Counted from the stretch's first letter, positions 7,866 to 40,713 are shown. The stretch is 64,000 nucleotides of DNA from Candidatus Pacearchaeota archaeon (GCA_023133415.1 JAGLWM010000005.1:4602-68601); one strand, 5' to 3'. Notes: generated from the sequence alone by a model not told the origin. Program-made: numbers and translations.

Positions 7866-8063
7866 GGAGATAACAAAAGTCGTTTTGCAAGAAACACTTT
7901 GTGGTGCTCTGTTGATTACCATTCATTAAGGTTGCGTCTAGAGATTAGCTTCCTGAAAGCAGTGGTCAATAAGTTAGCTGCAATAAAAAAAGATTAGCTT
8001 TATTTTCCTCGTTAGTGATGAAGGGGATTAAAAAATCTTTTTGGCTTGATCTAGGTTATCTCC
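7866..8063 (+). ncRNA. Unidentified ~200-nt structured RNA, copy A
   Basis: GGAGATAAC (7866-74) pairs with GTTATCTCC (8055-63). Other helices: GTTTT-GCAA-GAAAC hairpin, AAAGT/ACTTT, CTAGA (7938-42)/TCTAG (8050-54). TATATATT at 7837-44 and a T-rich tail follow the expected layout. Confidence 0.75.
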
Positions 8064-8423
8064 ATTTTTATTTTTTGGTGTTATAATAATTGGACTATAT
8101 TCGAAAATTATATATTTAATTTATGTTGGGTGATTGATATTCTTTGAATGTTTGGGATCGAAGATTTTGAGGGTAGGGTTGATATTTGGGATTGCGATTT
8201 TGTTGTGGGGATTGAATAATCTTGGGATATGGTTTGAATTAATATGTGCAAAGTGTAAGTTAAGGTGCGAAATCTTTAGAATTTTTGTTTATCTGTTTTG
8301 CTAATTGTGATATTATTAATGAGATGATTTTTATCAAAAGTTAAATTATGATTTTGGTATTTTATATTTAGATAGTATTTTTGTTTTAAAAAAATATATA
8401 ATTTCAGGATTATAGTTATTGTT

Positions 8424-8625
8424 GGAGATAACATCGGTTATCCTTGGAAAGGACGCTTACAAGCAACTTTCGTTAATGGTTGTGGTTATTAAATCGGCGA
8501 CGGGACTATACCTCGTTGTATGAAACCCACGATTTGAGAGTTGTGTTGCCTCGGAGAAGAACAAAAGGTTTGCCAGTAAAATGGTGGGTCCTGCGGATCT
8601 TTTTCGCCGTGTCCCGGTTGTCTCC
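8424..8625 (+). ncRNA. Unidentified ~200-nt structured RNA, copy B
   Basis: GGAGATAAC (8424-32) pairs with GTTGTCTCC (8617-25). TCCTT-GGA-AAGGA hairpin; CGGGAC (8501-06)/GTCCCG (8611-16); TATATAAT at 8395-8402. Confidence 0.82.
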
Positions 8626-8635
8626 ATTTAGTATC

Positions 8636-9181
8636 ATGAAAAAAAAAGTAGAAAAAGTAGAAAAAGTCGAAAAGGTTAAGACAAGTCTTAAGCAGAGAGT
8701 GGCTGCTATGAAGAATATTAAGAAGGCACAGGCGAAGTGGAAGGGTATGACTAAGGCGGAACATGCGGCGGCTCAGCCAGAGGGGCGCGCTAGGGAAAGA
8801 CCGGGTGCTGGAGGAGGAGAGTTTTTTAGAGTTGTTGTTAGGCCAAAGACGGAGTTTAAGACATTCAGGGCTCATGATGTTGGGAAGAAGGGGCATGTCG
8901 AACGTTTGGCTGGGCAGCGGGCTAATGGAAGTTGGGATACTCAGGCGTGGTTGATTAGTAAGAAAGAAGCGGATGTTGTCGGTGGAGTGCTTATGGGGAA
9001 GAGTAAGGATGTTAGGGATGTTCTTGCAAAACTTCAATCTGAGCCTAAGCAATTTCGGGGAGATATATTTAAAGCTAAGCCTAGGAGAAATGTTCCAGAA
9101 GAAGAGAAGCCGACTCCTGCGATGAAGAAGGCGCAGATGAGGAATATTAAAAAGGCACAGGCTGCAAGGTGGAAGAAATAA
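8636..9181 (+). CDS. Highly basic conserved-looking hypothetical protein with duplicated M(K/R)NIKKAQA motif
   Basis: The real start is probably ATG 8636; the track's 52-aa extension overlaps RNA copy B. The motif appears near both termini. Confidence 0.75.
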   Translation: MKKKVEKVEKVEKVKTSLKQRVAAMKNIKKAQAKWKGMTKAEHAAAQPEGRARERPGAGGGEFFRVVVRPKTEFKTFRAHDVGKKGHVERLAGQRANGSWDTQAWLISKKEADVVGGVLMGKSKDVRDVLAKLQSEPKQFRGDIFKAKPRRNVPEEEKPTPAMKKAQMRNIKKAQAARWKK

Positions 9182-9182
9182 A

Positions 9183-9614
9183 ATGAAGGTATCTTCTGAT
9201 TTTTCAGATAATGATAAGATTCCGGTAAAGTATACTTGTGATGGCGAAGATGTCAGTCCACCATTGATAATTTCAGATATTCCTTCTCATGCAAAAACTC
9301 TTGTTATAATTATTGATGATCCAGATGCTCCTACGAAAACATGGGTTCATTGGGTTATTTTTGATATACCTGCATCTCCTCCGGAAATGCAAATAATAGA
9401 TAATTCGTTGGGTAAGGAAGGGGTGAATGATTTCAAAAAAGTTGGTTATAATGGGCCATGTCCTCCTTCTGAAATGCATCATTATCGTTTTAAGGCGTAT
9501 GCTTTGGGTGATGAGCTTGGCTTATCTCGAGGGGCAACCAGCGAGGAAGTTGAGGATAAAATGAAGGGGAAGATTTTGGAACAAGCTGAACTTGTTGGAA
9601 TATATCAAAAATAA
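9183..9614 (+). CDS. YbhB/YbcL-family (PEBP/Raf kinase inhibitor-like) protein
   Basis: 'YTCDGEDVSPPL', 'DDPDAP..TWVHWV', 'YNGPCPP', 'HHYRFKAYAL'. Confidence 0.92.
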   Translation: MKVSSDFSDNDKIPVKYTCDGEDVSPPLIISDIPSHAKTLVIIIDDPDAPTKTWVHWVIFDIPASPPEMQIIDNSLGKEGVNDFKKVGYNGPCPPSEMHHYRFKAYALGDELGLSRGATSEEVEDKMKGKILEQAELVGIYQK

Positions 9615-9629
9615 ATTGGTTAATATTTA

Positions 9630-10250
9630 ATGTTTGAAAATAGGATTGATGCAGGAAAACAACTCGTGGAGAAACTTAAGGGATATGAGGGGAAGAGTGA
9701 TGCGATAGTTCTTGGAATTCCTCGCGGAGGGGTTACCGTTGCGTCTGTTGTTTCTAAAGCTCTTCGTTTGCCTTTGGATGTCATTGTTATAAAAAAAATC
9801 GGACTTCCGGAGAATGAGGAATTTGCGATTGGGGCTACGGGACCGGAAATATTTCATATTGATAAAGAGAGAGTTAAGGAGTTTAGTGTTGACAAAGGGG
9901 TTCTTGATGCTAAAATCAAGTTGAGGAAAAAGGAGGCTATGGAGAGGTATGATTTTTTGTCTAAAGGCAGGGCTCCGAAGTCGTTGAAAGATAAGGAGGT
10001 GATTTTGATTGACGATGGTATTGCGACTGGGGAGACGATGAGTCTTGCTGTGGAGATTGTGAGGAAGCAGTCTCCAAAAAAGATTGTTGTTGCTGTTCCT
10101 GTTGCTCCGGAGGATTCGTTGAAGAGATTGAATGTGGATGAAGTTGTTTGTATTTTGAAACCGAAGAGCTTGGGAGCAATCGGTGAATTTTATACGGATT
10201 TTTTGCCTGTTGAAGATTCTGAAGTAAGGGGGATGTTGGTCCGGCAGTAG
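9630..10250 (+). CDS. Phosphoribosyltransferase-family protein
   Basis: 'VLGIPRGGV' and the PRPP-binding loop 'VILIDDGIATGET'. Confidence 0.9.
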   Translation: MFENRIDAGKQLVEKLKGYEGKSDAIVLGIPRGGVTVASVVSKALRLPLDVIVIKKIGLPENEEFAIGATGPEIFHIDKERVKEFSVDKGVLDAKIKLRKKEAMERYDFLSKGRAPKSLKDKEVILIDDGIATGETMSLAVEIVRKQSPKKIVVAVPVAPEDSLKRLNVDEVVCILKPKSLGAIGEFYTDFLPVEDSEVRGMLVRQ

Positions 10251-10273
10251 GCAATAGGAATTAGGCAATAGGA

Positions 10274-11024
10274 TTTGTTGCACTCTGTAGAGCGCTCATG
10301 TTGCACGGTTTGTCTGTGCTTGAAGAAAAAATGGAAGTGAATGATGTTAAGATAAAAATTAAGGATGTGGAATTGAGTGGTATACTTGAGGTTCCGCAGG
10401 GGGCTGAGGCAATTATTTTGTTTGCTCATGGGAGTGGTAGTAGTAGGCTTAGTCCGAGAAATCAGTTTGTTGCGAAGGTTTTGAATAAGGCAGGATTTGC
10501 AACTCTTTTGATGGATTTGTTGACGGAAGAAGAAGAGGTTGTTGACGATAAGACTGGTGAGCTTAGGTTTGATGTGGAGTTTTTGGCGAAGAGGTTGGTT
10601 ATGGCTACGAAGTGGTTGCGAGAGAATGAGGAGACGAAAGATTTGAGAGTAGGTTATTTTGGATCTAGTACTGGTGCGGCTGCGGCGTTGATTGCGGCTT
10701 CAAAAGTTGAGGGTATTTTTGCTATTGTTTCGAGGGGTGGTCGTCCGGATTTGGCATTGGAATATTTGGATAAAGTTTCTTGTCCGACTTTGTTGATTGT
10801 TGGTGGCGAGGATAGCGAGGTAATTGGGATGAATAAGGAGGCTTTGGAGAAGTTAAAATCTAAAAAGAAGTTGGAAATAATTTCTGGGGCTACGCATCTT
10901 TTTGAGGAGAAGGGTGCGCTTGAAAAAGTTGCTGATATTGCGGCTGATTGGTTTGTGAAATTAGGAGATGGGTAATAGGATATAGGCAATAGGCAATGGG
11001 GTTTGTTGCGCTCTGTGGAGCGCT
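10274..11024 (+). repeat. Two intergenic 23-bp hairpin repeats (10274-10296, 11002-11024), each preceded by TAGGCAA heptamer runs
   Basis: TTTGTTGCACTCTGTAGAGCGCT versus TTTGTTGCGCTCTGTGGAGCGCT, 2 mismatches; the second folds as GCGCTC-TGTG-GAGCGC. Confidence 0.65.
10331..10975 (+). CDS. Dienelactone-hydrolase-like alpha/beta hydrolase
   Basis: 'FAHGSGSSR', nucleophile elbow 'GYFGSSTG', 'SRGGRPD', 'GATHLFEE'. Start taken at ATG 10331. Confidence 0.88.
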   Translation: MEVNDVKIKIKDVELSGILEVPQGAEAIILFAHGSGSSRLSPRNQFVAKVLNKAGFATLLMDLLTEEEEVVDDKTGELRFDVEFLAKRLVMATKWLRENEETKDLRVGYFGSSTGAAAALIAASKVEGIFAIVSRGGRPDLALEYLDKVSCPTLLIVGGEDSEVIGMNKEALEKLKSKKKLEIISGATHLFEEKGALEKVADIAADWFVKLGDG

Positions 11025-11080
11025 AGCAAAAATGAAAATGAAGGTTGTAAAATGAGGTATAAAAATGTGGGGTATAAGAT

Positions 11081-11905
11081 TTGAAATATATTTTGACAGA
11101 TTCTGTTAAGCATCTTAAAATTCCTTCGGTCAAAATTGAGAAAAGTTTTTTCCCGGAGGGTGAGCTTAGTTTGAGGATTAAGGAGGACTTGAAGGGAAAG
11201 GATGTTGTAGTAATTAGTAATATAACGACTGAGAATATTTTGGAATTTTTGTTTGTTGTTGATGCGGCGAAAAGGATGGGAGCTAAAGTGAAGCGGGTTG
11301 TGATTCCGTTTATGAGTTATGCTCGGCAGGATAAACTTTATACTCGTGGGGAGGCGGTTTCTGGAGCGGTTATTTGTTCGATTCTTAAATCTCTTAAGGT
11401 TCCGATTAGTGTTTTTGATGTGCATAGTTTAATGCTTCGGAAATATTTGAAATTCAGGAATGTTTCTTTGCTTCCTATGCTTGTTGAACAGCTTCCGAAG
11501 AAAGATTGGGTGGTTGTGTCGCCGGATAGGGGTGGGGCTGAGAGGGCGAAGAAAATAGCTAAGATTCTTGGGGCGCCGTTGGTTGTCATTAAGAAAATTA
11601 GGGAGGATCATGTTGATATGTGGCTTGATGAGGAGCTTCCGAGGAAGGATGTTTTGATTGTGGATGATATGGTGAGTAGTGGGACGACGCTTTTGAAAGC
11701 TGCTAAGATTTTGAAGGAGAAAGGGGCTGAAGATATTTATTGTATTTCTACGCATGGACTTTTTGTTAAGGGAGCTAGGAGTAAGTTGTTGGGGTCGGGT
11801 ATTAAGAAAATTTTTGTTACGAATAGTCTTAATGTGAAGGGTTCGAAGCAGATTCGGGTTAGGAGGATTGAGAGTTGGATAGTTGGTAGTTCGCTTCGCT
11901 GGTAG
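11081..11905 (+). CDS. prs: Ribose-phosphate pyrophosphokinase
   Basis: 'FPEGE', 'MSYARQDK', 'VVSPDRGG', 'VDDMVSSGTT', 'STHGLF'. Confidence 0.9.
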   Translation: MKYILTDSVKHLKIPSVKIEKSFFPEGELSLRIKEDLKGKDVVVISNITTENILEFLFVVDAAKRMGAKVKRVVIPFMSYARQDKLYTRGEAVSGAVICSILKSLKVPISVFDVHSLMLRKYLKFRNVSLLPMLVEQLPKKDWVVVSPDRGGAERAKKIAKILGAPLVVIKKIREDHVDMWLDEELPRKDVLIVDDMVSSGTTLLKAAKILKEKGAEDIYCISTHGLFVKGARSKLLGSGIKKIFVTNSLNVKGSKQIRVRRIESWIVGSSLRW

Positions 11906-11996
11906 TTGGTAGTCGGTAGTATTTTTGCGCTCTTAGTTCGCGCTTTGCCGATGGTTGGGTGATTGGGGAAGTTGTGAATAGGTAATTTGTTTATGT

Positions 11997-13688
11997 TTAT
12001 ATTGTTTCGATTTCGATTTTGAGTTTTTCTATAAATTCTTTAAGGTTCATTGTTTCGATTTTTTTTGAGTCTCTTGCCTTGACTGCAATTTTGTTTTCTT
12101 GTTTTTCTTTTTCTCCTATTGTTACTAAATAATTGAATCTTTGGATTTGTGCATCTCGAGCTTTTTTACCCATTGTTTCGGATTTGTCATTTAATTCGAC
12201 CTGAAAGTCTGCGTCGAAAAGTTTTTGGTATACTTCAGAAGCGTAATTCTTAACATCATCGTTCAGTGTCATTACTTTGATTTGGTTTGGGGAAAGCCAG
12301 AGAGGGAATTTTCCATTGAAATGTTCTGTTATAATTCCGATGAATCTTTCGAGTGAGCCATAGATTACTCTGTGGAGCATAATTGGTTTTTGGTTTTGGT
12401 TGTTTTTGTCTTGATAATTTAGCTCGAATCTTTCTGGTAGTGCCATGTCAAGTTGGATTGTTGAGCATTGCCATGTTCTATCTAGCGAGTCTTTTAGATG
12501 AAAATCTATTTTTGGTCCGTAGAATGCCCCGTCGCCTTCGTTAATCACATATTTCATTTTTAATTTTTTTAGAATTTCTTCTAGTGATTTTTCTGCCAAA
12601 TCCCAGATTTTTTCTGAACCTACTCTTTTTTCTGGTCTGGTTGAAAGTTCGACATGATCGAATTCTAATCCGAATGTGTTGAATATTTTGTTAATTAGCG
12701 CGATGACTTTTTCGACTTCGGACCCGAGTTGGTTTTCTGTGCAAAAAATGTGTGCGTCGTCTTGTGTAAATTGGATTAATCTAAAGAGGCCGCCCAGTGT
12801 TCCGGAGAGTTCGACTCTATGGACTATTCCGACTTCGCCGACTCTTAGCGGTAGGTCTTTGTATGTTTTTGGGGTTGTTTTATATACGAGCATTCCACCT
12901 GGACAATTCATTGGTTTTACCAAGAAGTCTCGTTTTTCATATTCTGTTTTGAAATTGTTTTCGCCATATTTTGACCAATGTCCCGAGATTTCCCAGAGTT
13001 TTCGATCCATGATTTGTGGAGTTGATATTTCTTCGTAGCCTGCAGTTCTGTGGAGGTTTCTCCATAATTCGATGAGTTTATTTTTTATGTGGAGTCCTTT
13101 TGGATGCCAAAATACCATTCCTGGCGCGACATTATTAAAGCTCCATAAATCCATTTTACTTCCGATTATTCTATGGTCGTTTTCTTTGAGTTTGGATGTG
13201 TCTAGTTTTGCTCTAGATACCTGTCTCAGAAGTTTTTCTCTTTGTTCTTCGGAGACATCTTCTTCTTCGTTTCCTTGGATTTTAAATTCGCGGGAGAGTT
13301 CGGATAGGGGATGGCCTTTTACTTTTAGTTCGAACGTTTTGTAATAGCCGAATGGGGCTCGGATTACTCTTAGGGGAGATAGTTGTTTTGCTGTTTCGTT
13401 TAAGATTTCGATTGCTGTTTCGGGGGAGGATAGGTCGCTTGATAGGTGTGCGTATGGGTAGAGGACGATTGTTTTGGGCTTGATTTGTTCGGCTATTTTT
13501 TTGATTGATTCTACTAGTTGCGGAACTGATTCTTTTGTGTCGGATTTTTCTACGGCGGTTAGGACTACAAGGCATTCTTTTGTTTCGTTTTCTAGAGTTT
13601 GGTCGGGTGCGATTTCATCGATTGATTTCATCGCTTTTTTTAGTGCTTTGAATTTAATGTAGTCGCAATGCAGATTGAGCGTTTTCAT
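11997..13688 (-). CDS. thrS: Threonine-tRNA ligase with archaeal-type N-terminal editing domain
   Basis: 'HCDYI', 'YPYAHLSS' (editing domain); 'KPMNCPG', 'FTQDDAHIF', 'GAFYGPKIDF', 'HRVIYGSLERF'. Confidence 0.95.
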   Translation of the reverse strand: MKTLNLHCDYIKFKALKKAMKSIDEIAPDQTLENETKECLVVLTAVEKSDTKESVPQLVESIKKIAEQIKPKTIVLYPYAHLSSDLSSPETAIEILNETAKQLSPLRVIRAPFGYYKTFELKVKGHPLSELSREFKIQGNEEEDVSEEQREKLLRQVSRAKLDTSKLKENDHRIIGSKMDLWSFNNVAPGMVFWHPKGLHIKNKLIELWRNLHRTAGYEEISTPQIMDRKLWEISGHWSKYGENNFKTEYEKRDFLVKPMNCPGGMLVYKTTPKTYKDLPLRVGEVGIVHRVELSGTLGGLFRLIQFTQDDAHIFCTENQLGSEVEKVIALINKIFNTFGLEFDHVELSTRPEKRVGSEKIWDLAEKSLEEILKKLKMKYVINEGDGAFYGPKIDFHLKDSLDRTWQCSTIQLDMALPERFELNYQDKNNQNQKPIMLHRVIYGSLERFIGIITEHFNGKFPLWLSPNQIKVMTLNDDVKNYASEVYQKLFDADFQVELNDKSETMGKKARDAQIQRFNYLVTIGEKEKQENKIAVKARDSKKIETMNLKEFIEKLKIEIETI

Positions 13689-13749
13689 ATTGAAAGAAAA
13701 TAAAGAGAATTTATAAAAGTATTGTAAGGAAAAGGCTTATAAGACATTA

Positions 13750-14388
13750 TTGTTTTGGTGTTTTATGAAAGGTCGAAATTTAATTAATAAGATCAGTTCT
13801 GGTTTGAAGCAGTTTGGTTTTAGTAGAGATGAAAGTGGAAAAGTTCTTGATAAAGTTGGTATTGTTGCGGGGATTTCTGATGATGGAAAAACTTTTCGGC
13901 ATTCTGTGGGTGTTGCAGAAAATTTCAAAAAGATTGGAGAATTTTATGGATTGAATGTTCCTTGTTGTTACGTATCTGGGCTTCTTCATGATATTGGCAA
14001 ATCTGTTGTTTCTTCAGAAATCGTTGCCTTTGATAAGAAATATAATGATGCAATGTATGAAGAGATGAAGAAGCATGTTAATGTGTCAATTTTGGATGAG
14101 CTTCTTGGGGGAAATTTTTCATTTATTCGTGATGTCTGTTCTTATCATCATGCTTTTCAGAAGAGGAAACCTTATCCTAGGATAAGGGAAAGTAGTTTTA
14201 GTGGTAAGAGGGGAAAGAAAGTTTTTTTGTATGCTCAGGCTTTGGCTTGGAGTGATTTTGCGGATGCGATACATAGAAATGATGGGGGCATGGCAAGTCA
14301 TTCTCTTATTGAGAGTAAGGAAAAAGTTTTTGAGGAAAATTACCCTGCAGCTTGCACTGTTATAAAATTTTTGCCTACACCTATATAG
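13750..14388 (+). CDS. HD-domain metal-dependent phosphohydrolase
   Basis: 'RHSVGVA', 'GLLHDIGK', 'YHH', 'DFADA'. Confidence 0.75.
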   Translation: MFWCFMKGRNLINKISSGLKQFGFSRDESGKVLDKVGIVAGISDDGKTFRHSVGVAENFKKIGEFYGLNVPCCYVSGLLHDIGKSVVSSEIVAFDKKYNDAMYEEMKKHVNVSILDELLGGNFSFIRDVCSYHHAFQKRKPYPRIRESSFSGKRGKKVFLYAQALAWSDFADAIHRNDGGMASHSLIESKEKVFEENYPAACTVIKFLPTPI

Positions 14389-14488
14389 ATAATTTATTTA
14401 AAGATGAAAAGATTATAAGAATAGTTAAAACAAATAGTTAGTTTTAACTTAACAAAGAATTTATAAACATTTGTGCTGTGTTCTAATT

Positions 14489-15208
14489 ATGGTAGACGAG
14501 GTGATAGATAGATGTCCGACAGGGGTAGTTGGTTTTGATAAGATTTGTCGGGGGGGATTTGTGCGGAATTCTGATAATTTAGTTGTTGGCGGTCCAGGGT
14601 CTGGGAAGTCAACTTTTCTTTTGCAGTTTCTTTGGAATGGGGCTACGCAGTTTGGGGAGAATGGTCTTTATTGTTCTTTTGAGCCGGATATTGCTGAGAC
14701 ATTGAATGATGCGATGGCATATGGTTGGGATTTTTCTAAGTTGAGTAGCGAGGGGAAGATTAAGTTTATGAGGTTTTCACCGCAGACTTCGATTGAGGAG
14801 CTGAAGAAGGAGTTGATGAAGGTGATTGCGCAAAATAGTATTAAGAGAATTTGTTTTGATCCGATTTCGGTTTTGGCGTTGAATTTGAATGATAAGGGGA
14901 AGATTAGGGAGACAATTTTTGAGTTGAGTTCTTTGATTAAGCGACTTAAGGTTACGACGATTTTTGTTGATGAGAGTTTGGAGGGCGAGATGGGTTTGAC
15001 TCGGGATGGAGAGTGGACAAAGACAGATATTTTGAGATTTCTTAGTGATTCTGTAACGGTGTTTTATGAGTCAGGGATTGCTGGGGTTGGAGATCGGGCA
15101 GTTCGGATTGTAAAGATGAGGAGGACGGCACATGAGAGGAAGGCCGTTGGGATGAAAATTGGGGATTCTGGGATTTTGGCTGGGGAAGATGTTGTTACGA
15201 ATGAATAG
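14489..15208 (+). CDS. KaiC/RAD55-like RecA-superfamily ATPase
   Basis: 'TGVVGFDKI', Walker A 'GGPGSGKS', 'YCSFE', 'IVKMRRT'. Confidence 0.88.
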   Translation: MVDEVIDRCPTGVVGFDKICRGGFVRNSDNLVVGGPGSGKSTFLLQFLWNGATQFGENGLYCSFEPDIAETLNDAMAYGWDFSKLSSEGKIKFMRFSPQTSIEELKKELMKVIAQNSIKRICFDPISVLALNLNDKGKIRETIFELSSLIKRLKVTTIFVDESLEGEMGLTRDGEWTKTDILRFLSDSVTVFYESGIAGVGDRAVRIVKMRRTAHERKAVGMKIGDSGILAGEDVVTNE

Positions 15209-15246
15209 TTACAAATAGAAAGGTTTAAATAGAATGATTTGCTGTA

Positions 15247-15567
15247 TTGTTTATGAAAACACTTGGAAAAATTATTGCTGGGGCTGCTATTCTTGGAGTA
15301 TTAGCTGGGGGAATGTATTTAAATGATAAGGGAACAGTGAGCGATAGAAATAATTTGACTTATCAGGGATATCACCCAGATAGACAGGATGGTTTTGACT
15401 TATTGATTTTTGATGATGCACCTCTTACTTATAGAACGACTGATCCAGATTTGAGGGCTATTGGAGATTCAGATAGATTTGAGATCGGTACGGATTACGA
15501 TGTTAGAGTTAAAACTCCAAGATGGTTTGGATTAAAAACTGTTGAGCCAATAAAACAAAGTGATTAA
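15247..15567 (+). CDS. Small secreted or membrane-anchored hypothetical protein
   Basis: N-terminal hydrophobic helix after MKTLGK. Confidence 0.6.
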   Translation: MFMKTLGKIIAGAAILGVLAGGMYLNDKGTVSDRNNLTYQGYHPDRQDGFDLLIFDDAPLTYRTTDPDLRAIGDSDRFEIGTDYDVRVKTPRWFGLKTVEPIKQSD

Positions 15568-15611
15568 TTATTTTTAGGATGAATTTAAAAAAATATATTT
15601 TTTAGATTGTT

Positions 15612-26778: not shown

Positions 26779-26813
26779 AAGCTCACCAATTTTGTACACT
26801 TTGTACGACCATT

Positions 26814-31597: not shown

Positions 31598-31687
31598 GAG
31601 ATAAATTAGTACTTTTCATTTATAAGAATTTATATACCTAAAGACTATTTGAGAAGTTTTTATAAAGTGAGGTTGTGATTAATTGAT

Positions 31688-33648: not shown

Positions 33649-33679
33649 ATTTTAGTGAGGGGCTTTTGGTTTATAAATT

Positions 33680-34228
33680 TTATAGAAGATTTATTAGGTA
33701 GCCGAAAATAATTATTCCGATTGCTCTCGGGATTAATCCGTATATTATGAAATTTCTTGTTGAAAAGTTCATTGCTCCGAAGAGGACGGGAAGATAGGGA
33801 AATGGTGAGATTGCTGTGATTGGTATGATTATTTTTCCATATTTGTTTGTGATCAGTGTTAGTTTTTTTGTTGATTTTTTTGATGTTAAGATGTCTACGG
33901 CTTTGAACATATATCTCTTGCCTAAAGAAAATCCTATGATTGAGCCTAGTGTTGAACCTATGATGGTGGCTAAGATTGCCAGAGTTGTATTTATGTTCGT
34001 AAAAATTGCTGCTGCTAGGATCATTGCTGGGGAAAGCATTTGAGGGATGAGATCCAATAGAAAGGAGATAACGAAGATTCCGTATAGTCCGTAAGTTTGG
34101 ATTTGGGATGATGCTTGGTCGTTTACGATGTCTTGATTTATCAGGCTGTATGACAGTATTGCTAAGATTGTTAATATTATTATTGCGTTTACAAATTTTA
34201 TTATGTTTTTAGTTTGAGCTTTTTTCAT
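33680..34228 (-). CDS. DedA/VTT-family membrane protein
   Basis: 'GSTLGSIIGFSLGK', 'AISPFPY', 'F..YGLIPR'. Confidence 0.7.
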   Translation of the reverse strand: MKKAQTKNIIKFVNAIIILTILAILSYSLINQDIVNDQASSQIQTYGLYGIFVISFLLDLIPQMLSPAMILAAAIFTNINTTLAILATIIGSTLGSIIGFSLGKRYMFKAVDILTSKKSTKKLTLITNKYGKIIIPITAISPFPYLPVLFGAMNFSTRNFIIYGLIPRAIGIIIFGYLINLL

Positions 34229-34700
34229 TTAACTGGAGTGCAGATTTCAAAATATTTAGTTCGAGGTCTTGATTTTTTTTGAGGAATTTATTGAAAAGAG
34301 ATTGGATATTTTTGTCTTGTTTTCTTTTTGTTCCTTTGATGTTTTTTAGTTTGGCGTAAAGTTTTACTTCTTTGTCAGAGAGATAGAGCAGTGGGCAGTG
34401 GGCAGTAGGTAGTGGGTAGTGGAATTTTCCCCTGATGATATTTTTGAATATGTCTTCTGCTATCTGGGAGAGATTATCTGCGGAGATGTTTGGAGAGGTT
34501 GAATGTTTTAGTTGAAATTTTGTTTGGAGGATTTGTTTTAGGGTGGCTGTGTTTAGGTCGTTGCTTTTTTTGAGTGTGAAGAGCTTGTTTTTTGGGAGCA
34601 TCTGGAATCTTCGGATTGTTCGGAAGACTTTTCGTTCGAAGTAGTTTAGGAATTCATTTTTGTTTAGTTCGCGACCGTTTGTAAATTTCCAGACTTTCAT
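34209..34700 (-). CDS. Hypothetical protein resembling a degenerate TtuA/Ncs6-like tRNA thiolation fragment
   Basis: 'FLNYFERKVFRTIRRF', 'PLLYLSDKEVKLYAKL'; no PP-loop. It is next to the thiouridylase-like gene. Confidence 0.45.
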   Translation of the reverse strand: MKVWKFTNGRELNKNEFLNYFERKVFRTIRRFQMLPKNKLFTLKKSNDLNTATLKQILQTKFQLKHSTSPNISADNLSQIAEDIFKNIIRGKFHYPLPTAHCPLLYLSDKEVKLYAKLKNIKGTKRKQDKNIQSLFNKFLKKNQDLELNILKSALQLNEKSSN

Positions 34701-35632
34701 TTTAATTTAGGGGCTAAAGATTTTTTTTCGCTTAATTGATATATTGTGAATTTATTTCGTTTTTCTTCGTTGTCTCCGGTTGAGTAGGCTTCTTGGAGCT
34801 CCAAAGCTGTGTTTCCGCTTGGTCGCTGATGCATGTATACCGATGGTTTACCTATATCATCTGGAATATGGTTTTTGAATGTTGAGATGATTTCGGATTC
34901 TTTGGCGTTTCGTGCGACGACGAACCATGTGTCATTGATAAAAAAGTGTCTGCCGATTGTTGTTAGAGGTAAGGTTTTTTCTGTAATTAGATTTTTTTCG
35001 AGTAGGTGTTTTATTCTTGAAGCTGGAACTTTTTCGCAAAGAAGACAGCCACCTCCAGGAGAGGGGTATTTTATTTTGTATTTTTCTGCTAATTTCATTT
35101 GCTCTTTTCTTCCTCTTCCAGTGATTTTGAGAAGCTTGTTTCTGTCGACTAGTCCGGATTTTTCGAAGGAAGTTTCTTTTAGTTTTTTTGCGCAAAGTGG
35201 TCTTAGGATTTCGAAACCTAATTCCTCGTCGATTGTTTTTATTGCTGAAGGGACTTGGGACATTGGTCTTTGACCTATGACTTCGCCTGTTGCTATGATT
35301 TGGATTTTGTGTTTGTTGGCGTATTCTTTGGCTTTTTTTAACATAAATATTTTGCAGTCTTTACATGGATTGATTCCGGCTCCGGCTCCGTATTTTGGAG
35401 ATTTTAGGATCTTGAGATATTCTGAGAGGAGGGGTTCTTTGTGGACGTCGAGGATTTTTAAATTGATAGGTTCTCTTTGAATGAGGTTGAGGTTGCAGTT
35501 CATATTGCTGCATCCGCAGCCGAATGGGAGAGCGAAGTAGAGAGCGGTAATTTGGAAGTCTTGATCTTGGAGGAGGCGTATGACTAGGCGAGAATCGAGG
35601 CCGCCAGAATAAAGGACGAGTGCTTTTTTCAT
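34697..35632 (-). CDS. PP-loop tRNA thiouridylase-like (ThiI/MnmA-related) protein
   Basis: 'SGGLDS', 'PCKDCK', 'TGEVIGQRPMSQ', 'PSPGGGCLLC'. Confidence 0.78.
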   Translation of the reverse strand: MKKALVLYSGGLDSRLVIRLLQDQDFQITALYFALPFGCGCSNMNCNLNLIQREPINLKILDVHKEPLLSEYLKILKSPKYGAGAGINPCKDCKIFMLKKAKEYANKHKIQIIATGEVIGQRPMSQVPSAIKTIDEELGFEILRPLCAKKLKETSFEKSGLVDRNKLLKITGRGRKEQMKLAEKYKIKYPSPGGGCLLCEKVPASRIKHLLEKNLITEKTLPLTTIGRHFFINDTWFVVARNAKESEIISTFKNHIPDDIGKPSVYMHQRPSGNTALELQEAYSTGDNEEKRNKFTIYQLSEKKSLAPKLK

Positions 35633-35664
35633 AAAGATGTTCAGGGAAACTAATTTAAGAAGTT

Positions 35665-36141
35665 TTAGATTTCAGCAAATATGGTGACGTAGTTCTTGCC
35701 ATATTTTTTTGAACATTTTGGACATGTCGGGTGGTAAAAATACAAATTCTTGATTTCTTTGTTTTGAGTTTTGACATATTCTTTCATTTGCTCGACCCAT
35801 TGTTTCATATTTTTACGTGGACCTTCGAATACTTTTGTTAGAAATGTGCCGGAGACTTTTATGTCGAGCGCTCTTTTTATTGGTTTTTTTGCGCTGATGT
35901 AAACATTAGAATAAAATGGGGATTTTTCGTCAGAGAGCACTATTCTTTCTTTGTCGTAGGCTTTTGCTGCTTTTAGTCTTTTGATGTTTTGAGTTATGAC
36001 GCTGTTGAAATTTAGTGGAATGTGGAAAAATGAGAAGACTTTATCTTTGACGAAAAGTTTGTCTTTCCATGTTATTTTTTTGTTGTTCCATTTTTTGGGA
36101 TTAAATTTTGGACAACAAAAGTTCGTATCACCTTCTTTCAT
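35665..36141 (-). CDS. Conserved hypothetical protein, GyrI-like 'hydrolase' family
   Basis: 'CCPKFNPKKW', 'FFHIPL', 'FLTKVFEGP', 'YHPTCPKCSKKYGKNYV'. Confidence 0.7.
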   Translation of the reverse strand: MKEGDTNFCCPKFNPKKWNNKKITWKDKLFVKDKVFSFFHIPLNFNSVITQNIKRLKAAKAYDKERIVLSDEKSPFYSNVYISAKKPIKRALDIKVSGTFLTKVFEGPRKNMKQWVEQMKEYVKTQNKEIKNLYFYHPTCPKCSKKYGKNYVTIFAEI

Positions 36142-36204
36142 TGTTAGTTGAAGTTGAATTTCTATTTAAAGGTTTGGATGGTGGGGGTCATTCGGTGGTG
36201 GGTA

Positions 36205-36293
36205 GGAAGGTTCCGAGAGGTCAGATGTCAGAATTCAGGGGTCGGATGACTTGGTGGGTGGTTGGAAGGTTATGAGAGGTCAGATGACTTGGT
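36205..36293 (+). repeat. Short intergenic direct repeats
   Basis: 23-mers at 36205-36227 and 36264-36286 (21/23 identical); GATGACTTGGT twice. Confidence 0.6.
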
Positions 36294-36305
36294 TGGTGGT
36301 CGGGA

Positions 36306-36758
36306 TTAGTATCCACCATAGACTTCTAGTTCTTCAGAGTATCCATTATGGTCGAAATCGAAGTTGAAGATGAATAGGAATTCTATTGTTGGGCGGACAC
36401 CTAAGCCGGCTTCTTTGACAAGTTTGTGGAGGTGAGTTGTGAAGCAGAGGGGGCAGACGTGGACGGATTTTTGGCATACGACGCAGGGTTTTGATTTTGC
36501 TTCTATATGATTGTGGTATTTCATGAAGGGTTTTAGTTTTGCCTTGATTTGTTTCGCTTCGGGGAATTTTTTTATCCATTCTTCAAAGGCTTTTGCTATG
36601 CAGTTAGGGCAGAGTGGGTGAGTTATGTCGTTGCCGCAGGAAAGGCAATAGTTGTGGATTTCTTTTTCAAAATTATATGTCTGTTTAGCGACATTTCTTT
36701 TCTTTTTCATTTGAAATGTCGCGTGATTAATAGAACTTAACAATAGCAAATCCGGCAT
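36306..36758 (-). CDS. Cys-rich (zinc-binding) hypothetical protein
   Basis: Four CxxC motifs: CLSC, CPNC, CVVC, CPLC. Confidence 0.7.
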   Translation of the reverse strand: MPDLLLLSSINHATFQMKKKRNVAKQTYNFEKEIHNYCLSCGNDITHPLCPNCIAKAFEEWIKKFPEAKQIKAKLKPFMKYHNHIEAKSKPCVVCQKSVHVCPLCFTTHLHKLVKEAGLGVRPTIEFLFIFNFDFDHNGYSEELEVYGGY

Positions 36759-36832
36759 AGGATAAAAGGGTATTAGAATTCCAAGTACAGTTCATCCTTT
36801 TTGTTTGCATGAATAAAAGAGGAAGAAAGGGT

Positions 36833-37858
36833 TTATATATTTTTTGGGTAGGCTAGTTTTTCGAGTTTTTCGAGTTCGTCTCTTTTGGATTCTATTTCTG
36901 AGAGTAGGTTTGTGATATGTTGTGCTGCTGTATTTTTAACGTCGAGAGGATGGATGGATTTTTCTTTGACTGCTTTTTCTAGTTCTTCGTAAGTTTGGAA
37001 TTCTAGGTTGCCACCGAATTTTTCTGGACGTTCTATGAGTAGTTTTTCGTTTTTGTCTCGGAGAAGTGTGAATATGATGTATTTGAAAAATGCCATTGTT
37101 CCGTTGTCTGGGTTGCCCTCTTTGAAGTCTGCCAAGTTTACTTTTTTCTGGATTGTTTTTTTATCGTCCATTAATCCTATTTTTGAGGCTTCTATCGATG
37201 AGGACATTTTTTTGCCTATGAGTCCTGGCAGGAAGGGTACCATTAGTTCGATTCGTTTTTTGTATCCGAGTTTTGGCAGTTGTTCTCGCGCTAGAACGAA
37301 AATTTTTCTTTGGTCTATCGCTCCGATTTGCATGTCGACTTTTAGATATTGTTCGTCGAGGGCTTGCATTAGTGGGTAGATGTAGCCAGAGAGTTTTGGG
37401 TTGGTTCCCATTTTTACGACTTCGCTTGCGGCTTTGTGGCAGTCGTGGACTGAGGTCATGCTTGAGAGCTTAAAGATGTCGAGGACGTATTCTTTTGAGA
37501 GTTGGAAGTCGCTTCCTTTTACGAATTCTAGTTTTGTTATGTTGGTGCCCATTGCTTTAATCATTAGTGGGATTATTTTTGAGTAGAAGTTGTATCGGTG
37601 TTCGAGGATTTCCCATGGTGTGTTGTCTAGTGCTGCGTGTAGGTCGGCGATTAGGACTTTGACTCTAAATCCTGCGTTTAGTAGATCTGCAAGTTTTAGT
37701 CCCCAGATGAAATAACCGATGTGTGGGGCTCCTGTTGGTGCGGTTCCGATGTAGACCGAGAGTTCTTTGTTTGATTCGAGGAGTTCTTTGAGTTCGTCTT
37801 CTCCGATTATTTCGGCTGTGTTTCGTTTTATTAGTTCGAATTTTTCTTGGGGGTTCAT
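36833..37858 (-). CDS. tyrS: Tyrosine-tRNA ligase (archaeal type)
   Basis: 'YIGTAPTGAPHIGY', 'YPLMQALD', 'GAIDQRK', 'KMSSS'. Confidence 0.95.
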   Translation of the reverse strand: MNPQEKFELIKRNTAEIIGEDELKELLESNKELSVYIGTAPTGAPHIGYFIWGLKLADLLNAGFRVKVLIADLHAALDNTPWEILEHRYNFYSKIIPLMIKAMGTNITKLEFVKGSDFQLSKEYVLDIFKLSSMTSVHDCHKAASEVVKMGTNPKLSGYIYPLMQALDEQYLKVDMQIGAIDQRKIFVLAREQLPKLGYKKRIELMVPFLPGLIGKKMSSSIEASKIGLMDDKKTIQKKVNLADFKEGNPDNGTMAFFKYIIFTLLRDKNEKLLIERPEKFGGNLEFQTYEELEKAVKEKSIHPLDVKNTAAQHITNLLSEIESKRDELEKLEKLAYPKNI

Positions 37859-37895
37859 GGGAAGATATGGGAGTTGAAGTTTTTAAGGGTTTGTT

Positions 37896-37939
37896 TGGGT
37901 CAATCTTCCCATGAAAAACTTAGATAAAAATTCCTTATA
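37896..37939 (-). pseudogene. Relic of the integrase 5' end (promoter region plus first codons)
   Basis: 40/45 identical (1 gap) to 26032-26076, which spans the start of the intact integrase. Confidence 0.75.
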
Positions 37940-38011
37940 ATAAATTTGTAGCGGTGTTGTAGTGGATTTTGAGATAAAAAGTTTAATAAGTGAGTAAGCC
38001 AATTTATTTAC

Positions 38012-38527
38012 ATGATTTACAATATTGCTTTAGTTTTCGAGGAAAGAATTAATAAGCAGATTCATGATTTTTATGGGATAATTAAAGATAATTTGAATCT
38101 TGAATTTGGTTTAGAGAGTCGATCCATTCCGCATGCTACACTTATAAAATTTGAATCTAAAGAGGAATTGAACTCAGAAAAGCTTTCGAGCATAATTGAA
38201 GACATGGCTGATGATATTAAAGTGGATTTTTCTGGTATCACATTACTTCCTTCTAAATCTTCTATTGACTGCTGGGTAGAGCTATCAATATTAAAAAGCC
38301 AAAAATTAATCGAGATTCAACGAGTTCTCATTAGCAAGTTAAAAGATTATGATATTGTAAGTGGTATTAATGATAGATTTAGGCCGCATATCACTTTTTG
38401 TAAAACTAAAAATTGTGAATTTAATATCATGAATTTGGATTCTTCGCTCTTAAGAAGAGGTGGGGTTAATGCGAGGTTGGTTATTGGTGGTGTCGATTCT
38501 AATTTTGAGTTTTTTGAAATAAGATGA
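38012..38527 (+). CDS. 2H phosphoesterase (2'-5' RNA ligase family)
   Basis: Two HxT motifs: 'PHATL' and 'PHITF'. Confidence 0.85.
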   Translation: MIYNIALVFEERINKQIHDFYGIIKDNLNLEFGLESRSIPHATLIKFESKEELNSEKLSSIIEDMADDIKVDFSGITLLPSKSSIDCWVELSILKSQKLIEIQRVLISKLKDYDIVSGINDRFRPHITFCKTKNCEFNIMNLDSSLLRRGGVNARLVIGGVDSNFEFFEIR

Positions 38528-39018
38528 AATCTAAAATAATAATTGTAGATGAGAAAGATGAGGTAATAGGACATAAATTAAGAGGCACATTAGATAAAGA
38601 AGATATTTATCAAGTATCTGCACTTTGGATTACTAATTCCAAAGGAGAAATTCTTTTAGCTAGACGCCATCATACAAAAACTCATCATCCAAGAAAATGG
38701 GGTCCTGCTGTTGCGGGGACGGTTGATGAGGGTGAGAGTTACTATGATAATATAATTAAGGAAGCGGAAGAGGAATTGGGACTTAGAGATATTGAGCTTG
38801 AACTTGGTCCCAAGAGAGAAACGAATGGGGAGTATCATCATTTTACTCAATGGTATCATTTGGTTATTGATAAAGATATTAACGATTTTACAATACAAGA
38901 AGATGAGGTTGAAGAAATTAAATGGTTTTCTTTAGGAGAATTAGAAAATCAATTAGAGGTAAATCCTGAGGAATTTTTGCCTAAAATGAAAAGCTACTTT
39001 GAGTTATTTAAGTCTTAA
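38524..39018 (+). CDS. NUDIX hydrolase (IDI type 1-like)
   Basis: 'IVDEKDEVIG', 'AGTVDEGESY...IIKEAEEELG'. Confidence 0.85.
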   Translation: MKSKIIIVDEKDEVIGHKLRGTLDKEDIYQVSALWITNSKGEILLARRHHTKTHHPRKWGPAVAGTVDEGESYYDNIIKEAEEELGLRDIELELGPKRETNGEYHHFTQWYHLVIDKDINDFTIQEDEVEEIKWFSLGELENQLEVNPEEFLPKMKSYFELFKS

Positions 39019-39093
39019 CATCCCTCAAAAATCGTAAGAATGTATGTACTTTTTGTCCAGCAAGAATTTCTAAAATATACTAAAATGAGAAGA

Positions 39094-39142
39094 TGTCCCA
39101 ACCGCCGTGGCCGGAGAGATGTGTTTTTGGGGGGTGGACTAA
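39094..39142 (+). repeat. att-like site: degenerate core plus right arm
   Basis: TGTCCCAACCG (9/11 core match) followed by a 38-bp arm 33/38 identical to 44382-44419. Confidence 0.8.
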
Positions 39143-39158
39143 AGGGGTGACCACAGAA

Positions 39159-40085
39159 TCACTTTTTCTTATTTTTTGTAGACACCTCTTTTAGTGTCTT
39201 TTTATATTGCTTAATTAATAATTTAAGAGTAGGTTTTAGGTCGTCCCTTCTTGAATATTCGTATAGTGATTTATAATATTCTTGTCTATCTTCGAGCATA
39301 ATATTTATTGGAGGATAATTATTTTTTAATAATATATAATTTAGTAATAATCTTCCTACTCTCCCATTTCCATCTTGGAATGGGTGAATGTGTTCGAATT
39401 GATTATGTAATATTGCTGCCAGAACTAAAGGTTTGAATTTATTTTGATTTTCTTTATACCATTCAATAAAATCTTTAAGATAATTTCTTAGTTCTTCTTT
39501 TGGAACTCCCGTATGAAGAATTTTTCCTCTTGGGTTTCTTATGGTCACATTAACATTTCTGAATTTCCCAGAAAAAGGCTTTGAGCCTTTAAAACAAAAA
39601 TCGTGTAATTTTAACAATAATTTTAATGATAAATCTTCTTTTGTTTTTCTTATATATTCTATTGCTTTTGCAACACCTTTTATTTCAATTTCTTCTGCAT
39701 TTTCGGCTTTTTTCTTGTGAAGAATTTCTGCAACTTCATTTTCTGCTATCGTAGAACCTTCAATTGCATTAGTGTTATAAACAAAATCTTCTGTAAAATT
39801 TTCCCATTCTTTTTTGCTTAAGTGAGTAATTTTAATTTTATTGTTATAATTATTTAATGTTTCTGTTTGTTTTTTTGTTAATGTAAAAAAGAATACTTTG
39901 GTATTTATTTCTTCAAGTAATTCTAAAATTATTTCTTCAGCTTTTTTCTTTTTTCTTTTTAGTTCTTCTTCTGAGAGATTGACCCCTAAATATCTTCTTA
40001 TTTTTTCAACTTTATTATTTTCTCTGTAGGAATGGACTAAATAATATTTTATATTTTTTCCAGATTTTCTTTTTTCAATATACAT
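39159..40085 (-). CDS. Fic-domain protein
   Basis: Canonical 'HPFQDGNGRVGR' and 'YNTNAIEG'. Confidence 0.93.
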   Translation of the reverse strand: MYIEKRKSGKNIKYYLVHSYRENNKVEKIRRYLGVNLSEEELKRKKKKAEEIILELLEEINTKVFFFTLTKKQTETLNNYNNKIKITHLSKKEWENFTEDFVYNTNAIEGSTIAENEVAEILHKKKAENAEEIEIKGVAKAIEYIRKTKEDLSLKLLLKLHDFCFKGSKPFSGKFRNVNVTIRNPRGKILHTGVPKEELRNYLKDFIEWYKENQNKFKPLVLAAILHNQFEHIHPFQDGNGRVGRLLLNYILLKNNYPPINIMLEDRQEYYKSLYEYSRRDDLKPTLKLLIKQYKKTLKEVSTKNKKK

Positions 40086-40253
40086 GATATATTAAGGGTG
40101 CCCACGTTTATAAATACTTGTAATTTTGTGGTCACTGGGATGATTGCTAGATGTCTATGGAGGAAATAGAAAACAAATTAAATAAGTTTCAATCAATGAT
40201 GGATGCTTTAGAGTTGAGATTGATGAGGAAGCTAATGAACGGAAATGAAAAGA

Positions 40254-40282
40254 CGCCCCAACCGCCGTGACTAGAGATGTGT
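40254..40282 (+). repeat. att-like site: core plus right arm
   Basis: CGCCCCAACCG followed by CCGTGACTAGAGATGTGT. Confidence 0.85.
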
Positions 40283-40515
40283 CTACTTGATGGATGGAGA
40301 AAATTCTAAAGCTCTTTGGTTCTAATTATGCAATCAGTAAAATATGCAGTTTTACAATCGGAACAATAATTTGGGCAATGAACAATAAGGCTGTTTTAGC
40401 ATTTATTTCAGTCATTTCTTTTATTATTATTTTTCGTTCAATTTGAAACTTATTTTAAAAATTCTGTTTAGGTTTTCAAAGAAATATTTATATAGAAAGC
40501 TAATCTAAATAGAGT

Positions 40516-40713
40516 GGAGATAACACAAGTTAACCTTGGAAAGGTTGGGACTTGATAGTAGCTGTCAAATGCTTGACTACGATTGCGGGAATGGACTATA
40601 ACTCCTGCATGAAGATGTGCTTGCTGGTCTATTGGGTTTCGAAAACGGATGGGAAACGGTAATGAGTTGAATTACCCTACCTTTGAAATTTTCTACTGTG
40701 TCCAGTTATCTCC
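40516..40713 (+). ncRNA. Unidentified ~200-nt structured RNA, copy C
   Basis: GGAGATAAC pairs with GTTATCTCC. AACCTT-GGA-AAGGTT hairpin; CAAGTT/GACTTG; TGGAC (40592-96)/GTCCA (40700-04); TTTATATA at 40487-94. Confidence 0.82.

Follow-up and report, generated by a model that had tools for sequence, protein, structure and literature searches.

A double-pseudoknotted RNA family absent from Rfam, linked to a lysine-rich micro-ORF in DPANN archaea and present as three divergent paralogs in a Candidatus Pacearchaeota archaeon

Three units (A, B and C) in a Candidatus Pacearchaeota archaeon are divergent paralogs of one RNA family, which is uncatalogued (absent from Rfam 15) and widespread yet patchy in DPANN archaea. 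Over the window, by which we mean the whole 64,000-nt stretch analysed (GCA_023133415.1 JAGLWM010000005.1:4602-68601), Rfam 15 reports tRNA alone and nothing relevant over the units at E up to 10; it also reports nothing relevant over 8 canonical loci of the family at E up to 1. A covariance model, R2, was built solely from 27 other genomes, with the window copies left out, and it recovers all three units full-length, the matches spanning model positions 1-224 (Table 1). Because their scores of 34.4-56.7 bits lie below the 140-240 bits of canonical members, we describe A, B and C as divergent members.

The units had been proposed in an original prediction, made from sequence alone, as an unannotated, structurally selected RNA outside every known class, possibly used both standalone and as a leader. 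Direct reading confirms the claimed bounds, the shared start GGAGATAAC, the 3' ends (GTTATCTCC in A and C, GTTGTCTCC in B) with ATTT next in all three, the TATA-like octamers at a fixed distance from each unit, the 5' hairpins, the segment GGACTATA common to B and C, and the lack of an ORF after A with an ATG closely following B and C. At no more than one mismatch, GGAGATAAC has 25 occurrences, compared with 12 +/- 3 expected (0/100 shuffles). The interiors of the units are diverged, with a mean column identity of 67-69% in MAFFT alignments that include the conserved ends and flanks. The claims of structural selection and of a possible dual use are supported, with no Rfam match, covariation present, and no target-site duplications or MITE behaviour. 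The transcription that it also asserted remains an inference, as there are no transcript data.

Table 1. Positions in the window of the three RNA units, their elements and neighbouring features. Unit bounds are from direct sequence reading.
Feature	Position	Strand	Remarks
TATA-like box of unit A, TATATATT	7837..7844	+	-29..-22 from RNA start; direct reading
Unit A	7866..8063	+	most divergent copy, orphan; R2 34.4 bits, E 5.9e-8; MFE z = -3.05
Unit A P1	7866-7874 / 8055-8063	+	
Unit A P3 hairpin	7882-7895	+	GCAA loop
Unit A PK1	CTAGA 7938-7942 / TCTAG 8050-8054	+	
Oligo-T tract TTTTTATTTTTT	8065..8076	+	immediately 3' of unit A; direct reading
TATA-like box of unit B, TATATAAT	8395..8402	+	-29..-22; direct reading
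Unit B	8424..8625	+	5' leader copy before 181-aa basic protein; R2 56.7 bits, E 3.8e-14
Unit B P1	8424-8432 / 8617-8625	+	
Unit B P3	8441-8453	+	
Unit B P7 hairpin	8496-8519	+	loop GGGACTATACC
Unit B PK1	CGGGAC 8501-8506 / GTCCCG 8611-8616	+	
181-aa basic protein	8636..9181	+	twin NIKKAQA motifs; ATG 10 nt after unit B
CGCCCCAACCG copy 1	40254..40264	+	left edge of ~1-kb segment holding unit C
TATA box of unit C, TTTATATA	40487..40494	+	-29..-22
Unit C	40516..40713	+	canonical order (RNA then Lys-rich micro-ORF); R2 50.9 bits, E 1.5e-12
Unit C P1	40516-40524 / 40705-40713	+	
Unit C P3	40532-40546	+	
Unit C P7 hairpin	40585-40608	+	loop TGGACTATAAC
Unit C PK1	TGGAC 40592-40596 / GTCCA 40700-40704	+	
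32-aa Lys-rich micro-ORF, MVRTKTKEAKVKKLIKIAKGSKKNQNKDLKCR	40723..40821	+	ATG 9 nt after unit C
Frameshifted, truncated paralog of phosphoribosyltransferase 9630-10250	40849..41020 (end approximate)	+	downstream of unit C
CGCCCCAACCG copy 2	41275..41285	+	right edge of segment holding unit C

The canonical RNA is ~220 nt long and consists of a terminal stem (P1), 11 nested helices and two pseudoknots. In PK1, the loop CUGGAC of the P7 hairpin pairs with GUCCAG of the 3' strand, and in PK2, a junction AAYCU pairs with AGGUU inside a conserved 16-nt loop, UAGGUUAAGAUUGAUU. A single 25-nt 3' strand pairs successively with four 5' segments (P8, P2a, PK1 and P1). Covariation among homologs is very strong. 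In a plain MAFFT alignment of 27 sequences, 94.1% of cells are paired versus 32-44% in slid controls, with changes on both sides in 51/65 pairs and 0/500 shuffles as good. Among 96 distinct sequences, 95.1% of cells are paired versus 33-42% in slid controls, and PK1 and PK2, neither of which is part of the model, pair in 95.3% and 95.4% of cells, respectively. Two of our alignments (A7 and A8) follow the model, and pairing in their nested helices is inflated as a result; this bias is without effect on the MAFFT-based A6 and on both pseudoknots. The abundant G-U pairs are compatible with the + strand alone as RNA.

When the window copies are set against this fold, part of the original prediction has to be revised. 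The segments CTAGA/TCTAG, CGGGAC/GTCCCG and TGGAC/GTCCA are all present to the letter, but their reading as a nested helix abutting the terminal stem failed, since the family pairs them as a pseudoknot that joins a hairpin loop to the 3' strand. An "enclosing helix" (AAAGT/ACTTT and CAAGTT/GACTTG) failed as a family-conserved pairing because in the family the 5' segment has its partner far off on the 3' strand (UCGGU/ACCGA, changing from G-C to A-U in 16/93 sequences). Unit B has an ortholog in another genome (G015, L014 2050-2252, minus strand) with a compensatory C-G to U-A change in PK1, and unit C has one with identical gene order (G032, L046 1501-1700). Across the five copies of this genus type (the three units and these two orthologs), pairing reaches 84.6% versus 42-48% in controls, and PK1 is found in all of them, with 93% of cells pairing and 3 pairs covarying. 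In B and C, the canonical 58-nt 3' domain, comprising P9-P11 and the PK2 loop, is replaced by 35-45 nt of unlike sequence, and it is therefore possible that the window copies function differently or are partly degenerate; for PK2 in the genus type, there are five sequences only. Unit A retains a hairpin in its 3' domain, and the loop of this hairpin, GTTAGTGATGAA (8011-8022), is similar to the canonical GGUUAAGAUUGA.

The canonical partner of the RNA, which the original prediction did not have in view, is a micro-ORF of 32-90 aa (typically ~50 residues) that is extremely Lys/Arg-rich and carries the motif GR.PS.KSK.SKV.KLIKLAK. It follows at least 82/94 RNAs, the remainder mostly overlapping the model end, and its start is separated from P1 by only 0-36 nt, which leaves no room for a separate promoter. 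An HMM of the microprotein matches 51/301 genomes of the order, and the RNA is present in 51/51; every listed match adjoins the RNA, and the ORF was found nowhere else. No Pfam or NCBIfam matches were found for the microprotein. Within ~36 nt of the window copies, the micro-ORF occurs after unit C only, where it aligns with the SKV.KLIKLAK core (microprotein HMM E 4.2e-5) and is a shortened homolog of the family microprotein, with an ortholog, also of 32 aa, in G032. Unit B precedes an unrelated protein, and no ORF was found downstream of unit A in 8064-8423.

The 181-aa protein after unit B was considered as the canonical partner and rejected, since the RNA is missing upstream of most of its inspected homologs. 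Its homologs number more than 1,600, every one hypothetical and lacking a Pfam domain, and its AF2 model (pLDDT 84) gave no PDB fold match.

The RNA is found in 3/41 genomes of the genus, 27/151 of the family, 64/301 of the order and 48/401 of the phylum, and in at least 120 named DPANN MAGs, a lower bound; this spread was also outside the view of the original prediction. Carriage is 12-21% of genomes, the RNA being missing from about 80-88% of related genomes, and one copy per genome is usual. A search of IMG/VR gave no match. The genes flanking the RNA and micro-ORF are not conserved, with no recurring defence or mobile genes.

Across about 100 homologs, TATA 8-mers are most frequent at -31..-29 relative to the start of the model, and the box lies about 26-30 nt upstream of the RNA. 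Transcription is inferred on this sequence basis. A T-tract follows P1 in only about 15% of family members, and we therefore infer that, barring processing, family members do not in general yield a free RNA. Oligo-T is known to terminate archaeal RNA polymerase, and the tract after unit A is probably such a signal, termination itself being inferred from sequence alone. A second orphan copy (L101) also has T-tracts and no ORF, and in two genomes (G640 and G562), a tandem pair of RNA units shares one promoter and one micro-ORF. Any Shine-Dalgarno sequence lies outside the fold, and no conserved terminator or SD-sequestering alternative structure was found across the family.

Several known systems resemble the new RNA in part. 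Autoregulatory leaders, such as those of bacterial ribosomal proteins and the archaeal L7Ae K-turn leader, are likewise structured, lie directly 5' of a small basic protein, and have co-transcription (inferred for the new RNA) and a start codon at the foot of the fold. The new RNA, however, is far larger, with its 11 helices and 2 pseudoknots; its microprotein occurs in 12-21% of genomes and is not a known ribosomal protein, no rRNA mimicry or K-turn was found, and there are no binding data. OLE RNA with OapA and HEARO/omega RNA with IscB are similar as elaborate conserved RNAs tied genetically to a single protein gene, with which they travel through variable neighbourhoods. They differ in having no Rfam sequence or structure match to the new RNA, in being bacterial rather than archaeal (DPANN), and in their partner, which is a membrane protein or nuclease rather than a ~50-aa Lys-rich peptide. 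Riboswitches share the 5'-UTR position, conserved junctions, pseudoknots and occasional tandem (tandem-aptamer) units, but for the new RNA no ligand is known and no expression platform can be recognised, and one of its copies is an orphan with nothing after it.

Archaeal RNase P RNA (RF00373) was also considered, since the two RNAs have in common a terminal stem, pairings over long range and the proximity of a small basic protein. This candidate was rejected: a separate RNase P RNA lies elsewhere in this genome, at C10:1552-1873 (E 8.5e-22), and 7/8 other tested carrier genomes also have a separate RF00373 RNA. The pseudoknot topology is unlike, and RNase P RNA is universal, single and essential, whereas the new RNA is patchy.

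We lean, by a modest margin, toward an RNA-microprotein module that acts as an RNP, an autoregulatory leader or both, although there are no binding, functional or transcript data. In the mechanism we propose, which as a whole falls a little short of an even bet, the RNA and microprotein would work as a pair, with the basic peptide binding the folded leader to give a stable RNP and feedback on its own translation. The feedback is suggested by the start codon abutting the fold; peptide-RNA binding and the function of the microprotein are themselves inferred. In this genome, the RNA has been triplicated, with loops diverging and pairings kept by compensatory changes. Unit C retains the micro-ORF, B has been placed before a different basic protein, and A, which has a separate TATA box and ends in oligo-T, would be a free RNA, which argues for a role of the RNA beyond control of one ORF. 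RNA copies can indeed exceed the number of ORFs, as in the tandems of G640 and G562 and in orphan A. Against the mechanism, known autoregulatory leaders are far simpler than this 220-nt RNA with its two pseudoknots.

A bolder reading is also possible, in which the RNA and Lys-rich microprotein form an unknown DPANN-specific RNP, or a ligand-sensing or catalytic RNA, with the paralogs here adapted to distinct basic partners (one to the 32-aa peptide, one to the 181-aa protein, and one existing in a free form). If true, duplication would here have diversified an RNA scaffold in nature. RNA classes that are both large and intricately folded are rare, with very few known from archaea, and DPANN archaea have minimal genomes and a largely unknown biology. 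The RNA and microprotein, conserved across several DPANN lineages and dispensable in most genomes, offer a testable new RNA-protein system. The three diverged paralogs of the window (an orphan, a canonical copy and one before another basic protein) permit a comparison that is impossible in single-copy genomes and are ready material for studies of binding specificity and regulation.

Two alternatives to the module reading remain possible in the sense that neither is excluded. The first, which we consider unlikely, is a riboswitch, in which the RNA would sense a metabolite, ion or tRNA in cis to control the microprotein gene and, in this genus, additionally the 181-aa protein and PRT-DLH genes. 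In its favour, the RNA precedes, in the same orientation, an ORF lacking its own promoter, the junctions and loops show a strong, aptamer-like conservation, and tandem units before a single ORF are reminiscent of tandem riboswitches. Furthermore, some members of the family carry a 5' GGAY element that might compete with PK1 for the 3' GUCC, with a matching GAAC/GUUC change in one lineage. However, this element is missing from one whole clade, and no expression platform is visible, given the SD sequences outside the fold and the scarcity of T-tracts. No ligand can be deduced because the regulated gene encodes a microprotein of unknown function, and unit A, with promoter and oligo-T, has nothing to regulate.

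Less likely still is an independent trans-acting ncRNA or ribozyme, catalytic or a scaffold, with the microprotein merely co-transcribed or a cofactor without a regulatory loop. The RNA resembles typical stable ncRNAs in its size, its two pseudoknots and its terminal stem; orphans (unit A and L101) and extra tandem copies exist, and A, B and C have retained pairing despite diverged loops. Against it, the micro-ORF link is strict (51/51) with a very short spacer, the patchy presence excludes a housekeeping role, and Rfam recognised no self-cleavage motif.

We give very little weight to a toxin-antitoxin-like module, in which a toxic basic peptide would be neutralised by the upstream RNA in type III style. 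The order of RNA then protein, the occasional tandems, the patchy distribution and variable neighbourhoods, and the position of unit C beside a tRNA, with att-like repeats on either side, would fit. Known type III toxins, however, are ~170-aa endoribonucleases whose RNAs are short 34-36 nt repeats, whereas here the ~220-nt unit is usually single and the product is a 32-90-aa Lys-rich peptide with no domain match; nor is the RNA in IMG/VR or found near recurrent defence or mobile genes. A MITE-like mobile repeat or chance inverted repeat without RNA function, suggested by the 9-bp terminal inverted repeats and the one copy in an integration hotspot, is all but ruled out by the absence of target-site duplications at the units, diverged interiors, copies at orthologous positions in other species (G015 and G032), fixed promoter distance, usual single copy per genome, and covariation that includes G-U pairs fitting one strand only.

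Finally, the phosphoribosyltransferase gene that is truncated downstream of unit C is intact at the orthologous locus in G032, and the PRPP theme is confined to this genus. Unit C itself lies between att-like repeats, CGCCCCAACCG, that match the 3' end of tRNA-Asp 51550-51621, as read on the + strand.

The coordinates that the original prediction gave for the three window copies of the RNA family, units A, B and C, held on direct reading (Table), as did their shared ends (a 9-bp terminal stem, GGAGATAAC/GTTRTCTCC, followed by ATTT), the A/T octamer at exactly -29..-22 (TATATATT in A, TATATAAT in B and TTTATATA in C), the 5' hairpins of all three units and the GGACTATA common to B and C. Its account of the downstream context was also correct, with no ORF after A and an ATG 10 nt after B and 9 nt after C. 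The pairings proposed for a second helix (CTAGA/TCTAG, CGGGAC/GTCCCG and TGGAC/GTCCA) held as well; what did not hold was the description of this element as a helix abutting the terminal stem, and we reassign it as a pseudoknot, PK1. The claim that the units belong to no known class stood, as Rfam 15 contained no family for A, B or C at gathering thresholds and nothing over the units at E up to 10. An nhmmer search of the source genome with the local copies found none beyond the three units. With at most one mismatch, the terminal 9-mer occurs 25 times versus 12 +/- 3 expected, and the single-sequence folds of the three units modestly beat shuffles (z = -3.1, -2.5, -2.1).

The exact terminal sequence was absent from the 60 relatives searched, a result that is misleading because the ends covary. 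The next route was the 181-aa protein encoded 3' of unit B, for whose homologs the upstream regions were inspected. By this synteny, a single RNA-bearing ortholog locus was found, in genome G015, whose copy (B') terminates in GTTATCTCT and differs from B by a compensatory change from C-G to U-A in the second helix; the remaining homologs inspected, including the paralog just upstream of the window, were without the RNA. A naive all-against-all pairing scan was discarded, as G-U pairs made it too noisy. The first covariance model (R1), built from A, B, B' and C with three helices only, gave full-length matches in 27/151 genomes of the family. These are 200-230 nt long, nearly always one per genome, with every carrier genome from a different genus; they are strongly conserved in sequence among themselves, and none matched Rfam.

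Aligning 27 sequences by plain MAFFT (A6), we derive 11 nested helices and one pseudoknot, with 94.1% of cells paired versus 32-44% in slid controls. Both sides change in 51/65 pairs, which 0/500 shuffles equal. A second model (R2), built from the same 27 sequences, contained neither pseudoknot and none of the window copies. It added 100 matches (96 distinct), and in the R2 set 95.1% of cells are paired (33-42% in slid controls), with both-side changes in 57/70 pairs. PK1 joins the P7 loop CUGGAC to a 3' GUCCAG (95.3% of cells paired) and occurs in the variants CUGGA/UCCAG, AUGGA/UCCAU, AAGGG/CCCUU, ACGGG/CCCGU, CUGAA/UUCAG and CUAGA/UCUAG. The second pseudoknot, PK2, joins a junction AAYCU to the AGGUU of the loop UAGGUUAAGAUUGAUU (95.4% of cells paired), with a U-A pair in 77 of the sequences and C-G in a further 10. 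The 5' segment beside P3 has its partner in the 3' strand (UCGGU/ACCGA) rather than in local sequence, and a single 3' strand partners successively with P8, P2a, PK1 and the terminal stem P1. The many G-U pairs fix which strand is the RNA.

A 5' GGAY element lies directly 3' of P1 in approximately two thirds of members (columns 10-15 versus 289-294 of a further family alignment, A7). Its potential partner is the 3' GUCC also used by PK1, which may represent an alternative conformation; one lineage has a matching GAAC/GUUC, and a GGAAGGG clade is without the element. Inspection by eye gave no support for a BHB splicing motif at P1, for a K-turn in the P8/P9 internal loop, for a T-box-like UGGN loop or for similarity to integron attC.

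When scored over their full length with R2, the window copies reach 56.7 (B), 50.9 (C) and 34.4 bits (A), compared to 140-240 bits for canonical members. The five genus-type copies (A, B, C, B' and the G032 ortholog C') fit the family structure, with 84.6% of cells paired versus 42-48% in slid controls, and their PK1 is 93% paired with three covarying pairs. The P7 loop GGACUAUA(A/C)C is retained in units B and C, whose 3' domain is different and shorter. Unit A has lost this loop sequence and keeps PK1 via compensatory changes, and it retains a canonical-like 3' hairpin loop. It has its own TATA box and TTTTTATTTTTT at its end, and the next 360 nt are free of ORFs. This spacer contains many G-runs (TGGGAT, GGGTAGGG, TGGGGAT) and an additional GGACTATA; a similar G/T-rich stretch precedes the G015 ortholog of B.

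A tiny and extremely basic ORF lies 3' of every canonical RNA found with R1. The downstream ORF has the motif GR.PS.KSK.SKV.KLIKLAK and a median length of 52 aa (range 32-91 aa), and in most cases it starts 0-36 nt after P1. The encoded microprotein is annotated as hypothetical in public records and has no match in Pfam or NCBIfam. A microprotein HMM matched 51 of the same 301 genomes of the order that were searched with R2; the RNA is present in 51/51, and all listed matches directly adjoin it. Unit C has this canonical arrangement of RNA then micro-ORF, and its 32-aa ORF aligns to the microprotein core. A conserved operon context is rejected, as flanking genes vary between loci and any one neighbour is common to at most 7/80 of them; the PRPP/phosphoribosyltransferase (PRT) theme is therefore local to this genus. 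Upstream of family members, A/T content is maximal at -33..-23, and TATA 8-mers begin at -31..-29. The fold is conserved, the promoter signal lies at a fixed distance, and the RNA is strictly coupled to the micro-ORF and independent of genomic context. Since a T-tract follows P1 in just ~15% of members, we infer, without read evidence for transcript ends, that the RNA is as a rule transcribed together with the ORF.

Two genomes, G640 and G562, carry tandem pairs of RNA units with a gap of 4-8 nt. The J7/6 junction is altered (GAAGCCUG) in the first unit of the G640 pair, whose P11 loop is also altered, and in the second unit of the G562 pair; G562 has four RNA copies in total. At a separate locus (L101), a canonical RNA has two T5 tracts beyond P1 and lacks any recognisable micro-ORF (GAGGTAAAAATAAAG...), and this copy is an orphan like unit A.

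Locations of the RNA units and associated features (window positions unless a locus is named)
Feature	Location	Strand	Remark
Unit A	7866-8063
A-B spacer	8064-8423		ORF-free
Additional GGACTATA	8093-8100
Unit B	8424-8625
181-aa protein	8636-9181
CGCCCCAACCG copies	40254-40264, 41275-41285, 51550-51560	+	tRNA-Asp 3' end as read on this strand
Unit C	40516-40713
PRT paralog after C	40849-41020		frameshifted, truncated; IPRGV* versus IPRGGVTVAS in 9630-10250
G/T-rich stretch before B'	L014, about 2300-2470	minus
Tandem RNA pair	L197 (G640:C48), 380-835		head to tail, behind one TATA box, before one micro-ORF
Tandem RNA pair	L198 (G562:C9), about 1090-640	minus	head to tail, one TATA box, one micro-ORF
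Orphan canonical RNA	L101, 2411-2629
tRNA gene with direct repeat	L017 (own genome, C17:1331-4834), about 1030-1215		just upstream of the window

With R2, the RNA is found in 3/41 genomes of the genus, 64/301 of the order (36/122 genera, six families) and 48/401 high-quality genomes of the phylum. This patchy occurrence rules out a housekeeping role. A strict 26-base pattern places the RNA in at least 120 species genomes, with carriers labelled Woesearchaeota, Pacearchaeota, Nanoarchaeota, Micrarchaeota, Iainarchaeum and Aenigmatarchaeota. Other labels on some carrier MAGs, "uncultured Methanosarcinales" and "Candidatus Saccharibacteria" (L104, L109, L116, L121, L139, L144, L149), are likely binning or labelling errors. 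The same pattern has 0 matches in IMG/VR, leaving a viral or proviral origin unsupported. The new RNA is not RNase P, since archaeal RNase P RNA sits at other loci of this genome and of carrier genomes. No description of it was found in the full-text literature searched. The window newly shows the RNA triplicated, in a divergent subtype specific to the genus, with one copy orphaned and another recruited in front of a different protein.

The start codon directly adjoins the fold, from which we infer that RNA and basic peptide may act jointly, as an RNP and/or through translational feedback; without read data, we favor this reading over its rivals at slightly less than even odds. The orphan state of unit A, the paired tandem copies and the placement of a unit ahead of another basic protein speak for a role beyond switching a single ORF on or off. 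A riboswitch controlling the ORF is a possible rival, favored by the tandem units and by the clade-limited GGAY element, which could compete with PK1, but no expression platform was found and unit A is an orphan. That the RNA functions alone, as an independent ncRNA or ribozyme, is unlikely beside its strict micro-ORF coupling, and a toxin-antitoxin-like pairing of RNA and peptide is very unlikely. A MITE or chance repeat is all but excluded.

Two of the CGCCCCAACCG copies flank a ~1-kb segment with unit C, its micro-ORF and the broken PRT gene, and the recurrence of this sequence could fit serial integrations at tRNA-Asp. Downstream of the G032 ortholog of C lie an intact phosphoribosyltransferase and a dienelactone hydrolase.

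Unit B heads the operon for the 181-aa basic protein, which has twin NIKKAQA motifs and is a member of a family numbering over 1,600 DPANN hypothetical proteins (60-85% identity among the 120 listed), usually without the RNA. As most homologs lack it, the protein is rejected as the RNA family's partner. Pfam and NCBIfam returned nothing for it, and its AF2 model (pLDDT 84), which predicts a beta-rich core flanked by two long helices, has no significant fold match in the PDB. Its paralog at L017 adjoins a tRNA gene with a direct repeat of the tRNA 3' part (cagcctctgctttctgggtcatgaaccctctgggttt, twice), resembling an integration scar. Upstream of this paralog, in place of the 200-nt RNA, are a short hairpin (GGAGGTGGTGCTGC...GCGGCACTACTCT) and a small acidic ORF, and the same arrangement is seen at G015:C2 (L018).
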